Origin: Alphaproteobacteria bacterium | GTDB lineage: Bacteria; Pseudomonadota; Alphaproteobacteria; RF32; CAG-239 | NCBI GenBank assembly: GCA_015062345.1 | Contig: SUUV01000003.1 | Location: forward strand, 15,572-79,571 | Direction: 5' to 3' | Length of the DNA stretch: 64,000 bases | Shown here: positions 1,571 through 56,679 of the stretch, in pieces | Layout: each line of letters opens with the position of its first letter | Numbering within the stretch: the first letter of the stretch is position 1 | Translations under genes and position numbers: made by a program | The notes under the pieces: model-generated | Told to the model about the DNA's origin: nothing | The model's input: the letters and a program-made list of their open reading frames with translations, nothing else | Databases searched by the model: none

Positions 1571-2920
1571 TCAAAATCTTTTTTGTATACTAAACTCAAT
1601 TAACGATTTTTCATATTCTTTTTGCCATATATTTGAGCTCTTATCAGTGTAAGAATATGTTAAAGTCGGTGCAAAGCCCATAAACGAAATTTTGCGATTA
1701 GACAGTGATATAGAATATCTTTGAGTTGTATCGTGTTCTTTTACTTGTTCAAAATGATAGTCTTTAACCGTCCAGCGCTTGCCTTTATAATCGGTAAACA
1801 CAACCGATGGCTCGGCATATATATGAAAACCGTACGGCAATTCCGCACCAAAACCGAGAGCTAGATTTATTCTATTGTTTGTATATGTTTCATCTTTTGT
1901 TTTTTCATATTCATAACCCGTCTTAAATATGAAATATTTTGAAGAATCTAAAGCATAAAACAAACGCAATCTGGCGCTTTTTACATTGCCGTCCAAAATA
2001 TCCGAATAGTCATCATAATATGTCGGCGTATAGTTTAAGGTTAGGTTTGCGTTTAGCTTTTTTGTTACATCATAATTTGTTTCAAACATAAAACCGGTTG
2101 AATAGTTATAAGATTTATGGGCAAGGTATCTCTTAGATATTGTTGGTCCAAAGAAAAAATCTCCTTTGTTATGAATATATCTTGCGCCTATTGTATAGTA
2201 TAGGTATGTATCGTCATATTTTTTATCGTCATATTTTGAATTATAAACCATAAATTCGTTCTTTAAACGCCATTTATCGGTGAGCTTAAATTCATAATCC
2301 CCGCCGAAAGTGATGTTTAAGCCGACATCTTTTTTAGGTTCGTCTAAGGTATTGCAAACAATGCCAAATATTGTCATAACACATTGTTCGCCCGATGCCG
2401 TATTGTTTACATTGTTATCGGGAGCAATTCCCATATTAAACCACAAATTCCAATTTTTGTTTTTTCTGATATAATATAAAGCATATTTTATTCTGTGTTG
2501 CACCTCTTTTGGGGTGTCTTTGTGTGATAAGGCCAATCTGTAATGATATTCGGCTCGCATCCAGTCTTTTTGTTTTAGGTACAGTTCTGCCAATCTATAC
2601 CTGATATTTGCAATATCGGGTTGATAATCTAAGATAAAATGGTAAATATCTATCGCTTCTTGAGGTTTGTTTTCCAGTGTGGCAATTTGTGCTAAAAGAT
2701 ATAAACGCTCAATTTCAAGTTTTTTATCATTATACGGTTTAGCAAGCAAAGCCTTTCTTGCATCTTCAAATTTGCCCTGATTTATTAAATCGGTAGCAAA
2801 AGATAATAATTGTTTATGCGTCAAGGCAATTGCGGTTGGTTGTTCCTCAACCGCATTTAACGGCATAGCTTGGGCGGTTGTAACGCCCAAGCTAATTAAC
2901 ACAATCAGTCCATACAGCAT
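1571..2920 (-). CDS. Outer-membrane protein with N-terminal TPR repeats and a C-terminal beta-barrel, Slam/DUF560-like.
   Basis: Signal peptide MLYGLIVLISLGVTTAQA. TPR-like helices in residues ~30-170. C-terminal half is rich in alternating aromatic residues and ends in F, as beta-barrels do. It directly abuts the upstream lipoprotein gene. Confidence 0.5.
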   Translation of the reverse strand: MLYGLIVLISLGVTTAQAMPLNAVEEQPTAIALTHKQLLSFATDLINQGKFEDARKALLAKPYNDKKLEIERLYLLAQIATLENKPQEAIDIYHFILDYQPDIANIRYRLAELYLKQKDWMRAEYHYRLALSHKDTPKEVQHRIKYALYYIRKNKNWNLWFNMGIAPDNNVNNTASGEQCVMTIFGIVCNTLDEPKKDVGLNITFGGDYEFKLTDKWRLKNEFMVYNSKYDDKKYDDTYLYYTIGARYIHNKGDFFFGPTISKRYLAHKSYNYSTGFMFETNYDVTKKLNANLTLNYTPTYYDDYSDILDGNVKSARLRLFYALDSSKYFIFKTGYEYEKTKDETYTNNRINLALGFGAELPYGFHIYAEPSVVFTDYKGKRWTVKDYHFEQVKEHDTTQRYSISLSNRKISFMGFAPTLTYSYTDKSSNIWQKEYEKSLIEFSIQKRF

Positions 2921-4354
2921 TTATTTACGAACACCGCCAAATGCCATTTCTGCATCTATATAGGTGCTTGTTCCGTCGAGCTCTTCTCTGGTTTCTCCAA
3001 AACAAGCAGAACCTACAACTTCATCAGGTTTTTTCAAGTTTTCACCATAATATTTAATGTCAGCCGTTCCGTTTATTTCATCTGTAAACGCAAAATCAGC
3101 ATCTTTTGGTGTTCCTTCAAATGCAAAAGTATATTCGCCTACATTTGCAGTATCGCTGGCAATGGTAATTTTATGCCAATCCGTAAAGTCGGCCGTAAGA
3201 GTTTCTTTACCGTCTTTAAAGTTCAAATTCATAGAACCGTTAAAGATTTTTTCTTTATCTGGTTTACCAATATTTTCGACATAAACAATGGCTACTGATT
3301 TACCTTCAAAGTTCATTTCGGTATCAACTTGCGGTAAATCTTGTGCGGTAGCTTCCAACCCTTTATAACCGCCATAATATGCCATATATCCTTTTTCGTT
3401 ACCTAGGTTATAATCCACTTTTCCGAAATCGCTGTATTTTAATCCTACGGATTTTCCTAAGCTATCCATTTTAACCGATTGTGGAAGTGACTCTTTATAA
3501 AAACAATTGCCTTGTTCTTCACAAGTGTCTTCATCTAAAAACTCACCTAAATCAGCACTATCTAACCAAGCCAACACTTTTTCTTCTGTTTGAGTATCAT
3601 AACCGCCGTTTTTAACTTTGTTTTTGAATGCTTCTACAATATCTTCTTTGGTAGCATCTTTATCGACAATAATGCTATGACTTGAGTAAAAGTCTCCGTC
3701 TGCATCAGAAATTGCACAGACAAATCCATAGCTGGTATAACCTTTGGTATTTTTATAAACTCCGTTACCGGCATTGGTATATTCAATAACACCGGTCGGA
3801 GAATCGTCATGGTTAATTTTTAACCCTTTAACATTTTGATTTTCATCAACAATAAAAGCATATCCGTCATCTTCAAAAGGTCCGTAAAATTCAACATCAT
3901 TTAAAGACAAATTGCGCTCTGTTCCCAATTTTGCATATACATCTTCGGCTTTTTCTTTAATATCCAAATTTTGAATTTCCGATTTTAATTCATCTAAAGA
4001 CATATCTTTTAATTCTTCAATATCTTCCCCGACCAATGCCAACGACAACAAAATGTCTTCTTTGGTTGCTGTGGAAACATCTTCTTGTACCAAAATTTTT
4101 TCCATATTCTCATATGCTTTGTTAATGTCCTCAGCTGAAGTATCAGATGTAAGCCCAACCAAAGCGGCTGCATCTTCATATGCTGTTGTGCGTTCTTGAG
4201 TGTTATTAACCGCCTTAATGCTTGTACCGACATTCGGTAAGGTTGTATGCGGAATATGACCGTGTCCGCCGCCACCTCCGCCACCACAAGCAGTTAAAGC
4301 CGTTGTAAGCATCAATGTGGTTAAAATAGTTGAAAGTCTCATAGTTCTCTCCAT
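2921..4354 (-). CDS. Lipoprotein with a poly-Gly tether and a C-terminal beta-rich domain; candidate surface-exposed lipoprotein (TbpB/fHbp-like architecture).
   Basis: Lipobox LTAC followed by GGGGGGGHGH. C-terminus reads ...GEYTFAFEGT...AEMAFGGVRK. Adjacent to, and co-oriented with, the Slam-like gene. Confidence 0.5.
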   Translation of the reverse strand: MERTMRLSTILTTLMLTTALTACGGGGGGGHGHIPHTTLPNVGTSIKAVNNTQERTTAYEDAAALVGLTSDTSAEDINKAYENMEKILVQEDVSTATKEDILLSLALVGEDIEELKDMSLDELKSEIQNLDIKEKAEDVYAKLGTERNLSLNDVEFYGPFEDDGYAFIVDENQNVKGLKINHDDSPTGVIEYTNAGNGVYKNTKGYTSYGFVCAISDADGDFYSSHSIIVDKDATKEDIVEAFKNKVKNGGYDTQTEEKVLAWLDSADLGEFLDEDTCEEQGNCFYKESLPQSVKMDSLGKSVGLKYSDFGKVDYNLGNEKGYMAYYGGYKGLEATAQDLPQVDTEMNFEGKSVAIVYVENIGKPDKEKIFNGSMNLNFKDGKETLTADFTDWHKITIASDTANVGEYTFAFEGTPKDADFAFTDEINGTADIKYYGENLKKPDEVVGSACFGETREELDGTSTYIDAEMAFGGVRK

Positions 4355-5160: not shown

Positions 5161-5298
5161 CCTCATTTTTGATTTAAATCCACAAATAGACTCTTTTTAC
5201 TTGCAAAAAAAAAAAACGGTTTATGATGCGTCTTGAAAGGGCATTTTTGCCTTTTGAATGAAAATTAAGTTAAACTATTTTTGTAAAGGATATAAATT
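5161..5298 (+). promoter_or_regulatory. Conserved promoter-leader module (copy B1): TTTGATTTAAAT box, TTGCAA, A12 tract 5215..5226, TATGAT, leader hairpin, RBS.
   Basis: Near-identical to seven other copies in the window. Confidence 0.7.
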
Positions 5299-5763
5299 AT
5301 GAGAAAATATTTTCTTTTATCTGCTGTTGCGCTTTTAACTGCAACCACAGCAAATGCAACCACCGACTATGCTGAAGTAACAGCTAAGGCTACAATTGAG
5401 GTGGCATCAGTATTTAGTTGCAGTGATTTAAATTTTGGTAAAATTGTTGTAAAAAACGGCCATGAAGATACTTATGTTGTTCTCGGTTATGAAGTAGAGT
5501 ATGACAAGGAAAACATCATATCATTTTCAGAATATGAAATGGCAGCTTGTAATAATCTGCTTGAGGTAACAGGCAATGATAGTATTATGCTTGATCATGC
5601 AACTTTACCTGAAACCATTACTTTATCAGGACCAAACGGAAGTAAATTAACAGTATCTGATTATCAAATATTTGATTGGGACTTTGGCGGTAAATTAAAT
5701 ATACCGGCAGGTATTCAAGCTGGCGAATATACAGGTTCATTTACCGTAACTGTAACATACTAA
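5299..5763 (+). CDS. Secreted small protein, MRKYF family paralog 1 (Csu/SCPU-pilin-like).
   Basis: Signal peptide MRKYFLLSAVALLTATTANA. CSDLNFG motif. C-terminal GEYTGSFTVTVTY. Followed by terminator 5774..5803. Confidence 0.8.
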   Translation: MRKYFLLSAVALLTATTANATTDYAEVTAKATIEVASVFSCSDLNFGKIVVKNGHEDTYVVLGYEVEYDKENIISFSEYEMAACNNLLEVTGNDSIMLDHATLPETITLSGPNGSKLTVSDYQIFDWDFGGKLNIPAGIQAGEYTGSFTVTVTY

Positions 5764-5773
5764 TCCAAATTTT

Positions 5774-5803
5774 AAGGGAGCTGATTGGCTCCCTTATTTT
5801 TAT
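5774..5803. terminator. Bidirectional intrinsic terminator.
   Basis: aagggagc-tgattg-gctccctt followed by a T-run. Lies between convergent genes. Confidence 0.6.
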
Positions 5804-10495: not shown

Positions 10496-11134
10496 CTAGT
10501 AATACCACATGATATAAACTCTGCAACTGGAACTAGTCTTTAAGCAACTATTACAAAGGGTGTCTATGTCACTAATTGTCATAGTTTTAAGACATTTTAC
10601 ATTATCCGTGCAGTAAGCATCTCCGTATAAATTACCATTAGATGTTGATATCTGTGTTTGCATATCTCGGCTATCGGTTGTTACATATCCTAGTTGAAAG
10701 GAGTTAGCTTTGGCAACATCAATAAGATTATAGCAAATATCCAGTTCATCGGAAGTAAAACTATAACCTATGCCTGACCTTTTCATTGATGTATTATAGA
10801 ATAACCAGATGTCATTATTAAACATATCTTTCAGAAATGTAGGGTCACGGGCAATTTCAAAACCATCCGGGACAAAGCCGGCTTTATAAAATGTTTCTGT
10901 ATACCAAGCTGTTCCGTTTTCATCAATAGAACCTGCAAAATTGGTTGTTTTTTCCGATTGTTGAATAGCAGTATTTAGGAGCATATTAAAGCTTTGAGCA
11001 TGCGTATTTAGTTTATATTTCATCATCGCTTTAGAATATCCGGCAATAGCACCGACCGATAAAACTCCGATTATGGCCAATACACCAAGCATTTCAACCA
11101 TACTTCTTCCAAGCTCACAAATTTTTCTCATCAA
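10496..11134 (-). CDS. Type IV pilin-like protein, paralog 1.
   Basis: Class III signal peptide MMRKICELG|RSMVEMLGVLAIIGVL with E at +5. C-terminal Cys pairs. Confidence 0.7.
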   Translation of the reverse strand: MMRKICELGRSMVEMLGVLAIIGVLSVGAIAGYSKAMMKYKLNTHAQSFNMLLNTAIQQSEKTTNFAGSIDENGTAWYTETFYKAGFVPDGFEIARDPTFLKDMFNNDIWLFYNTSMKRSGIGYSFTSDELDICYNLIDVAKANSFQLGYVTTDSRDMQTQISTSNGNLYGDAYCTDNVKCLKTMTISDIDTLCNSCLKTSSSCRVYIMWYY

Positions 11135-11215
11135 CTAACTCCATATATTATATTCTGTTCACATTCTAAACCGTTTTTTTTTTTTGCAATTTTAAAGAGT
11201 CTATTGTGGATATTT
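11135..11215 (-). promoter_or_regulatory. Promoter of pilin-like gene 1, with the same TTGCAA-A12-CGGTTTAGAAT core as the MRKYF promoters.
   Basis: Reverse complement reads agactcttt..ttgcaaaaaaaaaaaacggtttagaatg. Confidence 0.6.
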
Positions 11216-11290
11216 AATCATTTTTGAGGTGATAGTCAAATAAATTTATATTTATCATCGCTTAATAACTTTAGTAAGCAATTATTACCG

Positions 11291-11470
11291 AAGTCCGCCT
11301 CCTAACTGTCACTCCGGCACTTGATGCTGAAATCCGCCTCCTCACTGTCACTCCGGCACTTGATGCCGGAGTCCAGGTGGTAATATAGCTTTATTTATTC
11401 CTAGATACCGGTGTCTATTCCAAGCTAAAGCTTGGGCACCGATATGACCGTGATGAGAGAGACACCTCTA
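11291..11470. repeat. Conserved structured element A, copy 1. Its 5' ~40 bp are tandemly duplicated.
   Basis: Shared with 22619..22751 and 53737..53880. Contains nested inverted repeats. Confidence 0.7.
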
Positions 11471-11607
11471 CACCATTTTTGATTTAAATTCTTTATTAGA
11501 CTCTTTTTACTTGCAAAAAAAAAAAACGGTTTATGATGCAATGTGAAAGGTTAATTTTGCACCTTTCAAATGTACTTAAACTTAATTTTTGTAAAGGATT
11601 TAAAATT
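11471..11607 (+). promoter_or_regulatory. Promoter-leader module B2 (A12 tract).
   Basis: Same module as B1. Confidence 0.7.
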
Positions 11608-21362: not shown

Positions 21363-21860
21363 TTATTCACTTACCATGGTAAATGTAAAGGCACCTTTAT
21401 AAACACCGGTTATTAATTCAGAAGAACCGGATATATGAAGTTTGCCGGTAAGGACATTATCAAAAGCACCGCCTAATGCAATATCCGTTAAATATATACC
21501 ATAACCAGTATTATCTGTATGAGCCAGGTCAACAGAATCTGGTGCATACAATGTATAATTTTCAATATTCATATCGGCTCCGATTGAACATTCTGCAGAA
21601 GTATTTCCTATAGCAGATACAAAATATTCTGTTCCTTCAACAGCGGTAATGTTACCGAAACCGTCATCTTGTACGGTTACATCATGTGAGATGTCTGTTA
21701 GATAAATTTTACCCCAATTCCACACAGAACATGATGCTTTGGTTGCCAAAGCAAGCTCTGCCTGAACCTCAACATTGAAACCTTCTGTATAACCTGTTCC
21801 GGCATTCACATTTGTTGCAACCATCAAAGCCACCGCTGATATTAGAAAATATTTTCTCAT
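21363..21860 (-). CDS. MRKYF family paralog 3 (two-Cys subfamily).
   Basis: MRKYFLISAVALMVATNVNA...CSVWNWG...GVYKGAFTFTMVSE. Confidence 0.8.
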   Translation of the reverse strand: MRKYFLISAVALMVATNVNAGTGYTEGFNVEVQAELALATKASCSVWNWGKIYLTDISHDVTVQDDGFGNITAVEGTEYFVSAIGNTSAECSIGADMNIENYTLYAPDSVDLAHTDNTGYGIYLTDIALGGAFDNVLTGKLHISGSSELITGVYKGAFTFTMVSE

Positions 21861-22003
21861 TTTTAAAATTCCTTTACAAAAATTAAGTTTAAGTACATTT
21901 GAAAGGTCAAAAAATCACCTTTCACATCGCATCATAAACCGTTTTTTTTTTTTGCAAGTAAAAAGAGTCGTTTAAAAGATTTAAATCAAAAATGAGGTGT
22001 TTT
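21861..22003 (-). promoter_or_regulatory. Promoter-leader module B3 (T12 on the plus strand).
   Basis: Reverse complement matches the B consensus. Confidence 0.7.
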
Positions 22004-22522: not shown

Positions 22523-22618
22523 CCCCTTTTTTTAAGAGTATAACGAGCAAAATCAAAAGCTTTCAGATTAATAATAATCGGAAAATATTTATTTTTTATC
22601 CTCATACTTTGCAACATA

Positions 22619-22751
22619 CCTCCTAACTGTCACTCCGGCACTTGATGCCGGAGTCCAGGTGGTAATATAGCTAAATTATTCCCTGGATACCGGTGTCTAT
22701 TCCGAACTAAAGTTCGGGCACCGGTATGAAGGTGATGAGAGAGACACTTCT
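22619..22751. repeat. Structured element A, copy 2.
   Basis: Carries compensatory changes in stem H3 relative to A1/A3. Confidence 0.7.
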
Positions 22752-22888
22752 ACCTCATTTTTGATTTAAATTCACATTTAGACTCTTTTTACTTGCAAAA
22801 AAAAAAAACGGTTTATGATGCGATGTGAAAGGTAAATTTTTGCCTTTCAAGTACATTTAAACTTGAATTTTTGTAAAGGATACAAATT
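22752..22888 (+). promoter_or_regulatory. Promoter-leader module B4 (A12).
   Basis: Consensus module. Confidence 0.7.
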
Positions 22889-32690: not shown

Positions 32691-32807
32691 CCACCTCATT
32701 TTTGATTTAAATATCTTTCATAACTCTTTTTACTTGCAAAAAAAACTGTTTACGATGCGTATTGAAAGGTAAATTTTTGCACCTTTTAAAATTAAGTTTA
32801 ACTATTT
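32691..32807 (+). promoter_or_regulatory. Degenerate promoter-leader module B5: A8 tract, -10 mutated to TACGAT, RBS lost.
   Basis: Aligns to the B consensus with decay. Confidence 0.6.
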
Positions 32808-33105
32808 ATGAGAAAATATTTTCTTTTATCAGCCATAGCCCTCTTGGCTGCAACAAATGTTAATGCAACCACAGACTATGCCGAAGTGACTGCTAGGGCT
32901 AAAATTGAAGTAGCAAATACTTTTGAATGTGATGATGTTGATTGGGGAACAATTGTTGTTAAAGCCGAAAATTAAGAACAGTGATAATGTATTATATGCT
33001 ACATTCAATGCCGACAGTGATAATTTGTGGCCTGTATTAAATATCCCTGCCAATGTTGAACCTGGTGAATACGAGGGCGTGACTACAGTAGTAGTAACTT
33101 ACTAA
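32808..33105 (+). pseudogene. MRKYF family pseudogene: internal deletion plus frameshift.
   Basis: MRKYFLLSAIALLAATNVNATTDYAEVTARAKIEVANTFEC... then a stop at ~32974. The conserved C-terminal ...GEYEGVTTVVVTY continues in another frame (32923..33105). Total length is ~100 codons against ~160 in intact copies. Confidence 0.75.
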
Positions 33106-51340: not shown

Positions 51341-51522
51341 TGCAAAATAAAGCGAATCTGCCCGACTCTGCAGAATCCTTATGTCAAGTAAAATAATTGC
51401 AATGTTCTAAAAATGTTCTGTTGTTTTTTATTTTTTTATGTTTAGTATACGAATCACTTTAAGAGTTATTATCGACTTTTATAAAAAACAATTTGTATCA
51501 ATTTAATAAAAGGGAAGTAGAT

Positions 51523-52962
51523 ATGGCTGAAGAAGCAATAAAAAACAATGAATTTTCTGTTCAAGACCAATGGGGACAGATATGCAGCCAATTAAAGTTG
51601 GAGTTCGGTGAAACCGCTTTTGACAGTTGGTTAAAGCCTTTGAGTGTCGGTTCATTTACCGATGGTGTGATGAACATTTGTGTACCGACCGCTTTTATGA
51701 AAAACTGGGTAATTACTCACTATTCGGATCGAATCCACAAAATTTGGGAAAACAAGAATCCCGAAATTAAAAAAGTGAACTTTGTGGTACAAACCGTACA
51801 AACACAAATCCGCTCCAATCAAGACACTTCCTTATTAAAGAAAATTGACTCCACCCCTACTCCGCAAAACTTTTATACTTCGGCATATTCCAATGTTGTA
51901 AACTTCAATGAATATGTTCGTCCCGAGGGAAGTTCTCAACTTTCGGCTCCGTTAAATCCGGCTTATACTTTCGAGTCGTTTGTGGTTGGTAAAACCAATG
52001 AGTTTGCATATGCGGCAGCCAGAAAAGTTGCCGAATCGAAAACCGTATCATTTAATCCGTTGTTTTTATATTCGGGTGTAGGTCTTGGTAAAACTCACTT
52101 AATGCATGCCATAGCTTGGCATATCAGAAAACAAGACCCGAGTCGCAATGTGATATATTTATCGGCCGAACAGTTTTTATATAAGTTTGTAAAAGCTTTG
52201 CGCTATAAAGATACCACCGCATTTAAAGAACAGTTCAGAGCTGTTGATGTGTTGATGGTTGATGATGTTCAGTTTATGAGCAACAAAGGTTCAACTCAGG
52301 AAGAATTTTTCTACACTTTCAACTCATTGATAGAAGAAGGTCGTCAGATTATAATTTCAGCCGATAAATCTCCGTCTGATTTAGAGGGAATCGAGGCTCA
52401 TTTGAAATCCCGTTTAAACAGCGGATTGGTAGCTGACATTCACCCCACTGATTTTGATTTAAGAATGGGCATTTTAAATCATAAAGCTCAGCAAATGGGC
52501 ATCGCTTTACCTGAAAAAGTTGCTGAATTTTTAGCACAAAAAATTACGACCAACATCAGAGAACTTGAGGGTTCTTTGCGTCGAATCGCCGCTCATTCTC
52601 AGTTGTTGTCAAACAAAGAAATCACCTTGGATATGACACAAGATGTGCTAAAAGATATGCTTCGTTCTTTGGATAGAAAAACCACAATTGATGAAATTCA
52701 GAAAAAAGTTGCTGAGTACTTTAACATTTCGGTTAAAGAGTTGCAGTCATCAAGGAGAGCCAGAACAGTTGCCAGACCTCGTCAGATTGCAATGTATTTA
52801 GCAAAGCAACTTACATCTCGTTCACTTCCGGAAATTGGTCGCAAGTTTGACAGAGACCACACAACGGTTATGCACGCAGTCAGAAAAGTTGAAGAACTGA
52901 TTGTTGAAGATTCATCACTGGCTGAAAATGTTGATGATTTAAGACGCGCTTTAGAAAATTAA
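51523..52962 (+). CDS. dnaA: Chromosomal replication initiator DnaA.
   Basis: AAA+ motif GVGLGKTHL and a C-terminal DnaA-box-binding domain. ATG at 51523 with an AAGGGAAG RBS. Confidence 0.95.
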   Translation: MAEEAIKNNEFSVQDQWGQICSQLKLEFGETAFDSWLKPLSVGSFTDGVMNICVPTAFMKNWVITHYSDRIHKIWENKNPEIKKVNFVVQTVQTQIRSNQDTSLLKKIDSTPTPQNFYTSAYSNVVNFNEYVRPEGSSQLSAPLNPAYTFESFVVGKTNEFAYAAARKVAESKTVSFNPLFLYSGVGLGKTHLMHAIAWHIRKQDPSRNVIYLSAEQFLYKFVKALRYKDTTAFKEQFRAVDVLMVDDVQFMSNKGSTQEEFFYTFNSLIEEGRQIIISADKSPSDLEGIEAHLKSRLNSGLVADIHPTDFDLRMGILNHKAQQMGIALPEKVAEFLAQKITTNIRELEGSLRRIAAHSQLLSNKEITLDMTQDVLKDMLRSLDRKTTIDEIQKKVAEYFNISVKELQSSRRARTVARPRQIAMYLAKQLTSRSLPEIGRKFDRDHTTVMHAVRKVEELIVEDSSLAENVDDLRRALEN

Positions 52963-53013: not shown

Positions 53014-53577
53014 CTACCAATACACATCTATCGTACACCAACCTTCGCCGCAAGCAGCTGTGCAAGCGTTACTTATTTGTGACATATTTATATTGGTCAT
53101 ATCTTCCGGAGAAAACAGCTCTATACTATACGGACTATCTATTCTAATGAGCCCATAAGAATGTAAGTGCTTATATATACCGCTTGTAAAAAAGGCATTA
53201 CACATATCAACAGCAAAGTCATTTGTAGGGTGTATAATAAAATATGTGGAACCATTTGTGCTACTCTCAAATTGATAACCACCAATAGGAAGTTTGCACT
53301 TATGACCATTATAATGCTCATCAAAATATAAATCACAGTCAAGACCTATTTTAGGTGCGTCTTCAACATCTATGTCACCCGTTAAGGAACCGGATACTTG
53401 TAATTCAGTCAATTTTGCAAAAGCACCTGATACAATATCTAATGTTGTGTTTATTTTATGTTTTAGCATGGCTTTTGAGTAACCGGCAATGCCACCAACA
53501 GATAACACACCGATAATAGCCAAAACACCGAGCATTTCTACCATACTTCTTCCAAGTTCACAAACTTTTCTCATCAA
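53014..53577 (-). CDS. Type IV pilin-like protein, paralog 2.
   Basis: The N-terminal 40 aa are nearly identical to paralog 1 (MMRKVCELGRSMVEMLGVLAIIGVLSVGGIAGYSKAM). The C-terminus is divergent and Cys-rich. Confidence 0.7.
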   Translation of the reverse strand: MMRKVCELGRSMVEMLGVLAIIGVLSVGGIAGYSKAMLKHKINTTLDIVSGAFAKLTELQVSGSLTGDIDVEDAPKIGLDCDLYFDEHYNGHKCKLPIGGYQFESSTNGSTYFIIHPTNDFAVDMCNAFFTSGIYKHLHSYGLIRIDSPYSIELFSPEDMTNINMSQISNACTAACGEGWCTIDVYW

Positions 53578-53660
53578 CTTACTCCTTTAAAACATATTTT
53601 GAGCTCAGCATAAACCGTTTTTTTTTTTTGCAATTTATACGAGTCTTCTTTGTGGATAAT
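53578..53660 (-). promoter_or_regulatory. Promoter of pilin-like gene 2 (TTGCAA-A12-CGGTTTATGCT).
   Basis: Reverse complement matches the shared core. Confidence 0.6.
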
Positions 53661-53736
53661 TAGTCATCTTTGAGGTAATAGCCAAACAAATTTATATTTA
53701 TCACCTCTTAATAACTTTAGTAAGCAATTATTACCG

Positions 53737-53880
53737 AAGTCCGCCTCCTAACTGTCACTCCGGCACTTGATGCCGGAGTCCAGGTTAAATTATATAGCTA
53801 AATTATTCCCTGGATACCGGTGTCTATTCCAAGCTAAAGCTTGGGCACCGGTATGACCGTGATGGGAGACAACACCGCTA
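53737..53880. repeat. Structured element A, copy 3.
   Basis: Hairpins H1/H2/H3 intact. Confidence 0.7.
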
Positions 53881-54016
53881 CCTCAAATTTGATTTAAATT
53901 CACAATTAGACTCTTTTTACTTGCAAAAAAAAAAACGGTTTATGATGTGATGTGAAAGGCGATTTTTAGCTTTTCAAGTACATTTAAACTTAATTTTTAT
54001 AGAAAGGATTAAAATT
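53881..54016 (+). promoter_or_regulatory. Promoter-leader module B6 (A11).
   Basis: Consensus module. The tract is one A shorter than in other copies. Confidence 0.7.
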
Positions 54017-54505
54017 ATGAGAAAATATTTTCTTTTATCTGCTGTGGCTTTAATGACTGCAAGTAATGTTATGGCTGCAACAACAGCATCAACTGATGTA
54101 GAAATTTCAGCAAGTATTGAACTTATGAGCAATATAAATTGCTATGAACCGGAGCCGCTGTCATTATCTGTACGAGCCGGCAATGATGATTTGTCCATAG
54201 ATTTAGCAAATCCTAGCACTTCAAGCACTGATTATATGTTAATTGCAGGTGGAAACCCTCTGGTTGAGTGTAGTATCACTCACAAACTTGAGGGTCGAGG
54301 GTCAATAGATTTACCGGAAACAGTAACCCTAACCGGAACATCATCGGAGAAGAAACTTACTCTTACAAATTTATCAGAAATGTTTATTGCAGAACCAATG
54401 TCCGGAGTATATGCATATGGTATTGATGCAACATTAAATATTCCGGCAAACATTGATCAAGATACCTACACAGGAACTTTTACAATTTCTGCTACTTACG
54501 AATAA
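54017..54505 (+). CDS. MRKYF family paralog 5.
   Basis: MRKYFLLSAVALMTASNVMA...DTYTGTFTISATYE. Confidence 0.8.
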   Translation: MRKYFLLSAVALMTASNVMAATTASTDVEISASIELMSNINCYEPEPLSLSVRAGNDDLSIDLANPSTSSTDYMLIAGGNPLVECSITHKLEGRGSIDLPETVTLTGTSSEKKLTLTNLSEMFIAEPMSGVYAYGIDATLNIPANIDQDTYTGTFTISATYE

Positions 54506-54514
54506 TCAAAATTC

Positions 54515-54542
54515 ACCGCCTCATTTAAGAGGCGGTTTTATA
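54515..54542. terminator. Intrinsic terminator.
   Basis: ccgcctc-atttaa-gaggcgg followed by a T-run. Confidence 0.65.
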
Positions 54543-54544
54543 TT

Positions 54545-54841
54545 TTAAAAAACCGAAACCAAATCTTGTTTTATTAAATTATAAAATTGCTCATTAATTT
54601 TATGATAATCGGAAAAATTTACCACATAAGGCAACGAGCTTTCATCAAGCTGTTGTTTAATTGTTTCCAACTCATTAAAAGGCATCTCATTTTTACCTTT
54701 AATCAAAATATCCAAATCGGACAATTTGGAAAAATTGCCTTTAACTCTTGAGCCGTAAAAATAAAAATCATATTTATCGGAAAACGGACATAAAATGTCC
54801 TTAACAATTTTTTCTTCTGCCAAAGACATTCCGCTAATCAT
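54545..54841 (-). CDS. Minimal nucleotidyltransferase (MNT / HI0073-like).
   Basis: GSRVKGNFSKLSDLDILI (GS...D.D motif). Confidence 0.75.
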   Translation of the reverse strand: MISGMSLAEEKIVKDILCPFSDKYDFYFYGSRVKGNFSKLSDLDILIKGKNEMPFNELETIKQQLDESSLPYVVNFSDYHKINEQFYNLIKQDLVSVF

Positions 54842-54842
54842 T

Positions 54843-55265
54843 TTATGCTCCGTTTAATGCTTTTTCAAATGCCAAAACCAAAAACTCTGTTTCTGCAATA
54901 AATTGAGGCATTATATTTAACAATTCTCGTGCTTTTACAATGTTATATTCATGAGAAGTATCGTTTCTTTTGGCATAATATTGTTTCCAATTTTCCCAGT
55001 TCATAATCATATCATATCCGGCCATAAAACGAAAAATATTATTAACGGTCAGTTCATTGTCGTTTTTTGCATAAAACAACTTTAAATATTTTCTCATCAG
55101 TTTAAGCGCTGTTTCCATTGTATATTCAAACCGTTTGACACACGAATCGGCCACGATGTCGGCAAATATGACATTATCTTGTTGCTGATTATAAACTTCC
55201 CAACAATTTTTTAAGGTTGCCAGAGCATTTTTCAAATTATCAATATTAAATTCTTTATTGTCCAT
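54843..55265 (-). CDS. HEPN-domain protein (HI0074 family), partner of the MNT.
   Basis: The HI0074-like sequence sits directly upstream of the MNT with a 1-nt gap. Confidence 0.7.
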   Translation of the reverse strand: MDNKEFNIDNLKNALATLKNCWEVYNQQQDNVIFADIVADSCVKRFEYTMETALKLMRKYLKLFYAKNDNELTVNNIFRFMAGYDMIMNWENWKQYYAKRNDTSHEYNIVKARELLNIMPQFIAETEFLVLAFEKALNGA

Positions 55266-55329
55266 TTTTGTTTCCTTAATTTGTATTTTACAGTATGATA
55301 GTTTTACTCTGATTTCAAGTTTATTTTAT

Positions 55330-55470
55330 TTTCTTACCTCATTTTTGATTTAAACACTTCAAAAGACTCTTTTTACTTGCAAAAAAAAAGATTTAAAATG
55401 CGACATGAGAGACTAATCTTTAGCCTTTCATATGCACTTAAACTTAATTTTTGTAAAGGTCCTATAGTAT
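55330..55470 (+). promoter_or_regulatory. Orphan, decayed promoter-leader module B7. No downstream MRKYF gene.
   Basis: cctcatttttgatttaaa...agactctttttacttgcaaaaaaaaa, then a degenerate -10/leader. It abuts the 3' end of rnhB. Confidence 0.6.
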
Positions 55471-56540: not shown

Positions 56541-56679
56541 TACCTCAAATTTGATTTAAATTCACAATTAGACTCTTTTTACTTGCAAAAAAAAAAAACG
56601 GTTTATGATGTGATGTGAAAGGTGAGTTTTGCACCTTTCAAGTACATTTAGACTTAATTTTTATAAAGGAATTAAAAAA
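56541..56679 (+). promoter_or_regulatory. Promoter-leader module B8 (A12).
   Basis: Consensus module. Confidence 0.7.

Follow-up and report, generated by a model that had tools for sequence, protein, structure and literature searches.

A conserved promoter-adjacent hairpin in the leaders of the MRKYF genes, a candidate 5′ stabilising stem-loop

In the leaders of the MRKYF (DUF4402-like) genes, a short RNA hairpin is conserved as a structure, is specific to the coding strand and stands at a fixed place directly after the promoter, as seen in every intact gene of the family in the window, by which the whole 64,000-nt stretch of DNA analysed here is meant (G+C content 34.5%). It may be read as a 5′-terminal stabilising stem-loop of the ompA/papA type on the MRKYF mRNAs, a reading to which a probability of about one half is given, with the effect on mRNA stability put forward by analogy with these two systems. 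The hairpin itself is a familiar kind of element and adds little new biology; more noteworthy is the architecture of the gene family, with an A12-tract promoter, cassette replacement between strains and a pilin-like family on the same promoter.

Occurrence of the hairpin

The window holds six intact MRKYF genes, with start codons at 5299, 11608, 22889, 54017 and 56680 on the forward strand and at 21860 on the reverse strand; two of the six reach the Pfam threshold for DUF4402, and the copy at 54017 matches below the cut-off. The leader flagged in the earlier note, 5227–5298, begins with the final base of the −10 box and ends just short of the ATG. Its hairpin, listed with the other features in Table 1, is closed by the pair U5234:A5257 and continues with eight pairs, one of them G·U, between A5236–A5243 and U5248–U5255, leaving a loop of four nucleotides (U5244–U5247); folded alone, it reaches −9.9 kcal/mol with a z-score of −2.7. 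The general form of the element, derived from the six intact genes, a pseudogene, an orphan relic and the relatives, is TGAAAGG-loop-CCTTTCA. It is present in both the MFE and the centroid structures of all six MRKYF leaders, and 23–25 nt separate it from the Shine–Dalgarno (SD) region.

Table 1. Features of the flagged leader and its gene, and hairpins of the other copies in the window
Feature	Position	Strand	Details or evidence
Flagged promoter core	5201–5227	+	TTGCAA 5201–5206 (−35-like), A12 5205–5216, CGGTT, TATGAT 5222–5227 (−10)
Flagged 5′ hairpin	5234–5257	+	MFE and centroid fold; matched by covariance model R1
AU-rich linker, hairpin to SD	5258–5282	+	two versions among copies
Shine–Dalgarno region GTAAAGGAT	5283–5291	+	AAAGGA-type
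MRKYF gene, 154 aa, signal peptide and DUF4402 domain	5299–5763	+	PF14352, E = 1.4e-9
Intrinsic terminator of the 5299 gene	5773–5796	+	makes the gene a monocistronic unit
Hairpin, copy with ATG 11608	11544–11568	+	exact pattern, fold, covariance model
Hairpin, copy with ATG 21860	21900–21924	−	exact pattern (21901–21923), fold, covariance model
Hairpin, copy with ATG 22889	22826–22849	+	exact pattern, fold, covariance model
Hairpin of decayed copy	32763–32788	+	A8 tract, SD deleted, frameshifted ORF 32808–33105; covariance model
Hairpin, copy with ATG 54017	53953–53976	+	variant GAAAGGC/GCUUUUC; A11 tract; fold, covariance model
Hairpin in orphan promoter-plus-leader relic, no gene behind	55406–55430	+	one stem mismatch; covariance model
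Hairpin, copy with ATG 56680	56616–56640	+	exact pattern, fold, covariance model

The exact pattern GAAAGG-N6-14-CCTTTC occurs four times in the window against 0.05 expected, each time in an MRKYF leader. The earlier note had assigned these arms to every MRKYF leader; a hairpin is indeed found at the same place in six of six, while the exact consensus is kept in four of six, and since the flagged copy (arms AAAGGGCA/UGCCUUUU) and the copy at 54017 are variants, the statement holds as an approximation. The same note had pointed to loop sequences that differ between copies, but the loops are not free to vary: a U4–5 core occurs in every copy of the window and in 30 of 31 unique variants, and the conservation of the U columns is at least 0.9. 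The loop-proximal positions flanking this core do vary, as does the position of the U run inside the loop, and the predicted terminal loops range from 3 to 12 nt. The remark that the pilin-like leaders lack the hairpin was found to be right for both pilin-like genes of the window, despite their having the same promoter.

Conservation is not limited to the arms of the hairpin: a block of about 170 nt, comprising the promoter, the leader and the signal-peptide codons, recurs in all copies. Its order is ACCTCAtttTTGATTTAAAT; then GACTCTTTTTACTTGC, the A12 tract and CGGTTTATGATG; five variable nucleotides; the hairpin; an AU-rich linker of about 25 nt; AAAGGA; and the ATG with the signal-peptide codons. 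The hairpin is the most sequence-variable part of this block. The decayed copy at 32738–33105, which has its −10 box altered to TACGAT, retains it, and so does the orphan relic, which spans approximately 55320–55470. With regard to the linker, two versions, caaatgtACTTAAACTTAATtttt and caaATTAAGTTTAACTAtttt, are seen (e.g., 11569–11590 versus 5258–5282); their cores match as reverse complements at 10 of 11 bases and have AAAT/ATTT on either side, and from these letters the pair looks like the outcome of a small hairpin-mediated inversion. In one copy on a related contig (L028/L029, about 750–936), promoter and hairpin are lost, and what is left of the leader begins immediately behind the terminator-like hairpin of the upstream gene.

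The source organism is known from metagenome-assembled genomes (MAGs) only. The hairpin was also found in about 30 copies from MAGs of related gut Alphaproteobacteria. A protein-pattern scan of 185,579 species genomes gave 22 loci, all in a single MAG, Alphaproteobacteria bacterium RGIG4267 from roe deer colon, the flanks of which are 90–97% identical to the window at syntenic places, so that it is a close relative. Homologous proteins occur in several Alphaproteobacteria MAGs and on metagenome contigs, and the contigs that were fetched have the same leader. In total, 43 leaders were gathered; among the 39 copies analysed at that stage there were 35 distinct sequences and 31 distinct hairpins. 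The covariance model of the leader (R1) gave 41 matches in 234 kb, exclusively in MRKYF leaders. When metagenomes were scanned with a pattern for the promoter alone, five matches were returned, all of them unrelated chance matches, and no further copies were obtained. Protein-based look-ups aimed at more divergent relatives gave near-identical leaders, from which deeper covariation is unobtainable.

The comparison with RGIG4267 at a syntenic locus (window 53014–54520 versus 2860–3540 of locus L010) illustrates how the family changes. The flanks are 94–97% identical, the coding body of the MRKYF gene reaches only about 30–50% identity per 50-column block, and a pilin-like gene and a structured repeat are present in the window and absent from L010. 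Conserved flanks around a diverged body mean that the cassette has been replaced, and the family is thus hypervariable between close strains.

RNA structure of the leader and its relation to the SD

The RNAalifold consensus of the leader consists of the 5′ hairpin alone. In a MAFFT alignment, 94.4% of cells are paired versus 43–75% when the partner columns are slid; in a model-fitted alignment of 37 distinct leaders, the corresponding values are 95.8% and 44–73%, and none of 500 shuffles attains the observed pairing percentage or covariation score, a result that overstates the support because the copies are paralogues of one narrow clade with haplotypes in common (GAGAGG, for instance, occurs together with a CGACC/CGACA 5′ flank) and hence represent few independent events. 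The substitutions among the 37 leaders are mostly wobble-compatible, with A-U changed to G·U in 12 rows and G-C to G·U in 9 rows, and the innermost pair is swapped (U-A 15, C-G 8, U·G 4, G-C 1). Single-sequence folding z-scores of the six window leaders are modest (−0.8 to −3.4), and the evidence for structure comes from the comparison between copies.

In 26 of 31 variants the sense strand has the more stable fold of the two strands, with means of −9.9 kcal/mol for sense and −7.5 kcal/mol for antisense (Wilcoxon p = 1.4e-4), and G·U pairs, which are tolerated on the sense RNA only, occur in 16 of 31 variants, 19 pairs in total. Better folding of the sense strand together with the G·U pattern points to an RNA structure on the coding strand and argues against a DNA operator or recombinase site. 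From the pairing in the 37 leaders and the comparison of strands, it is the structure of the hairpin rather than its sequence that is conserved; the selection on structure proposed in the earlier note is thereby supported by the pairing of 94–96% of cells against slid controls, by the wobble and compensatory changes and by the greater stability of the sense strand.

It had further been noted that the 3′ arm is complementary to the AAAGG of the SD besides pairing with the 5′ arm, and this is correct. The proposal built on it, that the hairpin sequesters the ribosome-binding site (RBS) or competes with it, does not agree with the predicted ground state. Across 34 leader variants the median pair probability of the hairpin is 0.94, while the median number of expected pairs between the 3′ arm and the SD is 0.0008; more than one such pair is expected in only 4 of the 34, those with the weakest hairpins (−4.1 to −6.9 kcal/mol), and the RNAalifold structure contains no SD pairing. 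The author of that proposal had named folds without SD pairing in most copies as the outcome that would speak against it, and this is what was found, so sequestration in the ground state fails. With the 5′ arm barred from pairing, 24 of 32 leaders instead pair their 3′ arm with the SD. Such latent pairing is nearly automatic, because the two partners are the sole C-rich and G-rich segments of an AU-rich leader and the SD is the generic AAAGGA; in the upstream regions of the window AGGA is found in 14 of 41 and AAGGA in 10 of 41, and AAGGA/AAAGGA is an ordinary SD here. No consistent co-variation was seen when variants of the 3′ arm and of the SD were compared across copies.

A three-part translational switch can nevertheless be drawn from the same arms, with the 5′ arm GAAAGG as anti-anti-SD, the 3′ arm CCUUUC as anti-SD and AAAGGA as SD. 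Translation would be ON by default, with the hairpin closed; if the 5′ arm or the loop were captured, be it by an sRNA, by a protein or through trimming of the 5′ end, the 3′ arm would be free to mask the SD and turn translation OFF, which could co-regulate all paralogues. We consider this unlikely. The pairing that it needs does appear in most leaders once the 5′ arm is blocked, but only as the nearly automatic consequence of composition described above; the fold between 3′ arm and SD is already the MFE in the two variants with the weakest hairpins (L004 and L011_286), but the ground-state medians and the RNAalifold prediction leave the SD unpaired. The region of the 5′ arm, TGTGAAAGGT, resembles the SD region, TGTAAAGGAT, and the conserved U4–5 loop core hints at a recognised motif, yet 3′ arm and SD do not co-vary consistently, neither an aptamer nor a match to a known RNA family in Rfam was found in the leader and no trans-acting factor was identified. 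In an extended and more speculative form, the hairpin would be the ON state of a family-wide switch that one sRNA or protein opens through the 5′ arm or the U-rich loop, so that the 3′ arm masks the SD; combined with the slippage-prone A12 tract, this could cause about 30 hypervariable genes for surface proteins to be expressed combinatorially or in a mutually exclusive way, an idea that we regard as doubtful.

Other known types of leader element were also considered. In Rfam, the leader has no match at the gathering threshold or at E values up to 10. As for a terminator or attenuator, the stem is followed by AAAUG or AAGUA without a U run, and the terminator scan makes no call. An upstream ORF initiated from the SD-like 5′ arm at a UUG in the loop was rejected, as the UUG is missing in several variants and the frame is not conserved. 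A second, fourU-like hairpin between the U5 run and the SD, seen in some MFE folds, was likewise set aside, since it is absent from the RNAalifold consensus and its 3′ partner varies. Compared with fourU and ROSE thermometers and with riboswitch platforms, the MRKYF leader is alike in having a pyrimidine-rich, SD-complementary segment, but here a stronger local hairpin takes up this segment, which does not pair with the SD in the predicted ensemble, and the leader is without an aptamer or Rfam match.

Promoter position and the candidate role of the hairpin

The elements TTGC, A12, CGGTT and TATGAT form the most conserved part of the cassette (0.86–1.0 per column), and TTGCAA is kept even where the sequence 5′ of it differs. 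Because of its spacer of 15–16 nt, the MRKYF promoter was overlooked by a simple promoter scan. At sigma-70 promoters, the first transcribed nucleotide usually lies about 7 nt past the −10 box. In an alignment of 29 leader variants, pairing in the stem begins with nucleotide 7 after TATGAT, with a shift of 1 nt in copy L002, which places the hairpin at or adjoining the inferred 5′ end of the mRNA, with 0–3 unpaired nucleotides before it. The hairpin is therefore probably 5′-terminal, given a start site deduced from the position of the promoter. In the pilin-like genes there is an A at the 7th position after the −10 box, and in their leaders only some 30 nt separate the −10 box from the start codon, which would put the start site at this position. 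An internal promoter 3′ of the hairpin was looked for, and only weak, non-conserved hexamers were found; a sigma-54 or sigma-28 promoter was rejected by inspection, there being no GG 10 nt upstream of the GC in TTGC. The MRKYF genes are monocistronic, each with its own intrinsic terminator, and these terminators are not conserved.

In the explanation that we favour, the sigma-70-type promoter (TTGCAA, A12 spacer, TATGAT) would fire about 7 nt past the −10 box, where the stem begins, and the transcript would consist of 0–3 unpaired nucleotides, a hairpin of 7–10 bp with a U-rich loop, an AU-rich linker of about 25 nt, the AAAGGA SD and the AUG. A paired 5′ end would hinder decay that depends on this end, whether RppH strips off the pyrophosphate, RNase E senses the 5′ terminus or RNase J digests the RNA from it, and the SD would remain accessible beside the closed hairpin. 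The result would be a longer life for the monocistronic messages of abundant secreted, possibly pilin-like, proteins. It has been reported that 5′-terminal base pairing controls decay by RNase E (Bouvet and Belasco 1992, cited in PMC3997798), that RNase E is much slower on RNAs with a base-paired 5′ end (PMC3997798) and that RppH of B. subtilis requires at least two unpaired 5′ nucleotides (PMC3997798). None of RNase E/G, RppH and RNase J was seen among the window ORFs that were scanned. A purely protective hairpin leaves the conserved U4–5 loop core and the SD-like/anti-SD-like pairing of the arms unexplained.

The nearest precedent is the 5′-terminal stem-loop of E. coli ompA, hp1 (Emory, Bouvet and Belasco 1992; Arnold, Yu and Belasco 1998; cited in PMC3997798). 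Like it, the MRKYF element is a short hairpin that would open a monocistronic message for an exported protein made in abundance; both are followed by an AU-rich single strand and a strong RBS, and the proposed role is in each case a block on 5′-end-dependent decay. However, the ompA leader measures 133 nt and that of MRKYF about 65–70 nt with a single conserved hairpin, the two are without sequence similarity, and the MRKYF element, with its putative 5′ end and putative effect on half-life, is common to roughly 30 paralogous genes per genome. Similarly, the longevity of papA pilin mRNA needs a 5′ stem-loop (Bricker and Belasco 1999, cited in PMC3997798), again on the message of a secreted fibre-subunit-like protein, but the 5′ end of papA is made by RNase E processing of a polycistronic transcript, whereas the MRKYF hairpin follows a dedicated promoter, and the pilin identity of MRKYF is weakly suggested. 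Among Gram-positive systems, the STAB-SD element of cryIIIA, GAAAGGAGG (Agaisse and Lereclus 1996, cited in PMC3997798), has in common with the MRKYF leader an SD-like polypurine near the 5′ end, here GAAAGG, and the aprE leader (Hambraeus 2002, cited in PMC3997798) a 5′ stem-loop plus a strong RBS. The MRKYF host, in contrast, is an alphaproteobacterium, and its SD-like arm is buried in a stem with a pair probability of about 0.94, so that it could not recruit 30S subunits in the manner of STAB-SD.

If the stabilising reading is correct, a compact, portable module of promoter, 5′ stabilising hairpin and strong RBS would stand before some 30 hypervariable secreted-protein genes, which would account for a homogenised 5′ block next to diverging coding bodies, and it would be a candidate expression part for Alphaproteobacteria.

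Alternatively, the hairpin may have no dedicated function and be a quasi-palindrome inherited by duplication and gene conversion of the promoter-leader cassette, the arms being kept complementary by template-switch correction during replication. Across paralogues and strains alike, the whole block of about 170 nt has been homogenised, the cassette has been swapped at the syntenic locus, the adjoining linker has an inversion typical of hairpin-mediated mutation, and the hairpin is still present in decayed copies. Template switching would, however, produce arms with perfect Watson–Crick pairing, yet about half of the variants carry G·U pairs, and the hairpin is the most variable region of the block, yet 96% of its cells are paired; we hold this reading to be rather improbable.

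A binding site for an RNA-binding protein (e.g., Hfq, S1 or an RNase E-like enzyme) that reads the stem with its U-rich loop and thereby governs how the family is translated or degraded, without masking the SD, appears improbable to a similar or slightly greater degree. The U4–5 core is conserved where adjacent loop and inner-stem positions vary, and the element is confined to MRKYF leaders (all 41 matches of R1 in the 234 kb), but the length of the loop and the position of the U run vary, no candidate protein was found and Rfam families gave no match. Least probable by far, and already disfavoured by the comparison of strands, is an element acting as DNA, whether bound at +1 to +25 by a dimeric repressor as its operator or serving as the core site of a site-specific recombinase: an inverted repeat does lie directly 3′ of the −10 box in every copy, in a hypervariable family with neighbouring copies in divergent orientation, but the distance between half-sites is not fixed (4–12 nt), Watson–Crick symmetry is lost by G·U-type changes in about half of the variants, the antisense strand folds worse and the spacers differ in sequence among copies, which is incompatible with the crossover sites of tyrosine recombinases.

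The gene family and its surroundings

The predicted structure of the MRKYF protein is a beta-sandwich (mean pLDDT 84.6). Among PDB folds it comes closest to CsuA/B of the Csu pilus, a weak match (E = 0.06, probability 0.90, TM 0.35–0.41), followed by CfaB (CFA/I); a PDB sequence search with MRKYF and a literature search for DUF4402 both returned nothing. The model is compatible with an abundant secreted fibre subunit. In the genes, the codons for RKYFL (AGAAAATATTTTCT), at 5302–5315 and in every copy, form a perfect 14-nt palindrome right after the ATG, which RNAfold folds as a 6-bp hairpin in most copies.

An A tract sits between TTGC(AA) and TATGAT in every MRKYF promoter. In the window the tracts lie at 5205–5216, 11515–11526, 22797–22808, 53925–53935 (A11), 56587–56598, 21942–21953 (reverse strand) and 32738–32745 (A8), and they are also present in the related loci L001–L038. 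Among distinct copies, A12 is found in 24, A13 in 1, A11 in 2, A10 in 1, A9 in 1 and A8 in 3; the A8 copy of the window is the pseudogene. To judge by the sequence, this is the classic set-up for slipped-strand phase variation of promoter spacing, and one may argue that this shared A12-tract promoter deserves more interest than the hairpin. Further upstream, about 50–60 nt before the −10 box, the motif TTGATTTAAAT(C/T) is conserved at 5164–5173 and equivalent places; GATTTAAATC is a perfect 10-bp palindrome in some copies, and ACCTCA just before it is conserved as well. This motif may be a transcription-factor site or an UP element.

The window also contains two type IV pilin-like genes on the reverse strand, at 10496–11134 and 53014–53577, with the N-terminus MRK.CELGRSMVEMLGVLAIIGVL. 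Their promoters (11150–11190 and 53590–53640, reverse strand) are built from the same module, ATTGC, A12 and CGGTTTA...TG, which means that two unrelated surface-protein families share one promoter. In addition, a G+C-richer repeat of about 170 nt lies 5′ of some MRKYF promoters, at about 22600–22760, 53720–53890 and 11290–11470 in the window and at about 2700–2900 on L009 and 9700–9900 on L032. It folds into three consecutive strong hairpins with a consensus energy of −50 kcal/mol, one of which shows a compensatory change from CCAAGC/GCTTGG to CCGAAC/GTTCGG; a search of Rfam with the repeat gave no match, and it could be a REP/MITE-like element or a small RNA.

Several neighbouring genes were also recognised. 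A Slam (SlipAM plus TPR) outer-membrane protein is encoded beside a 477-aa lipoprotein with a Gly-rich lipobox tail at 1571–4354 on the reverse strand; dnaA lies at 51493–52962 on the forward strand; and a nucleotidyltransferase and substrate-binding-protein pair resembling a toxin–antitoxin system lies at 54545–55265 on the reverse strand.
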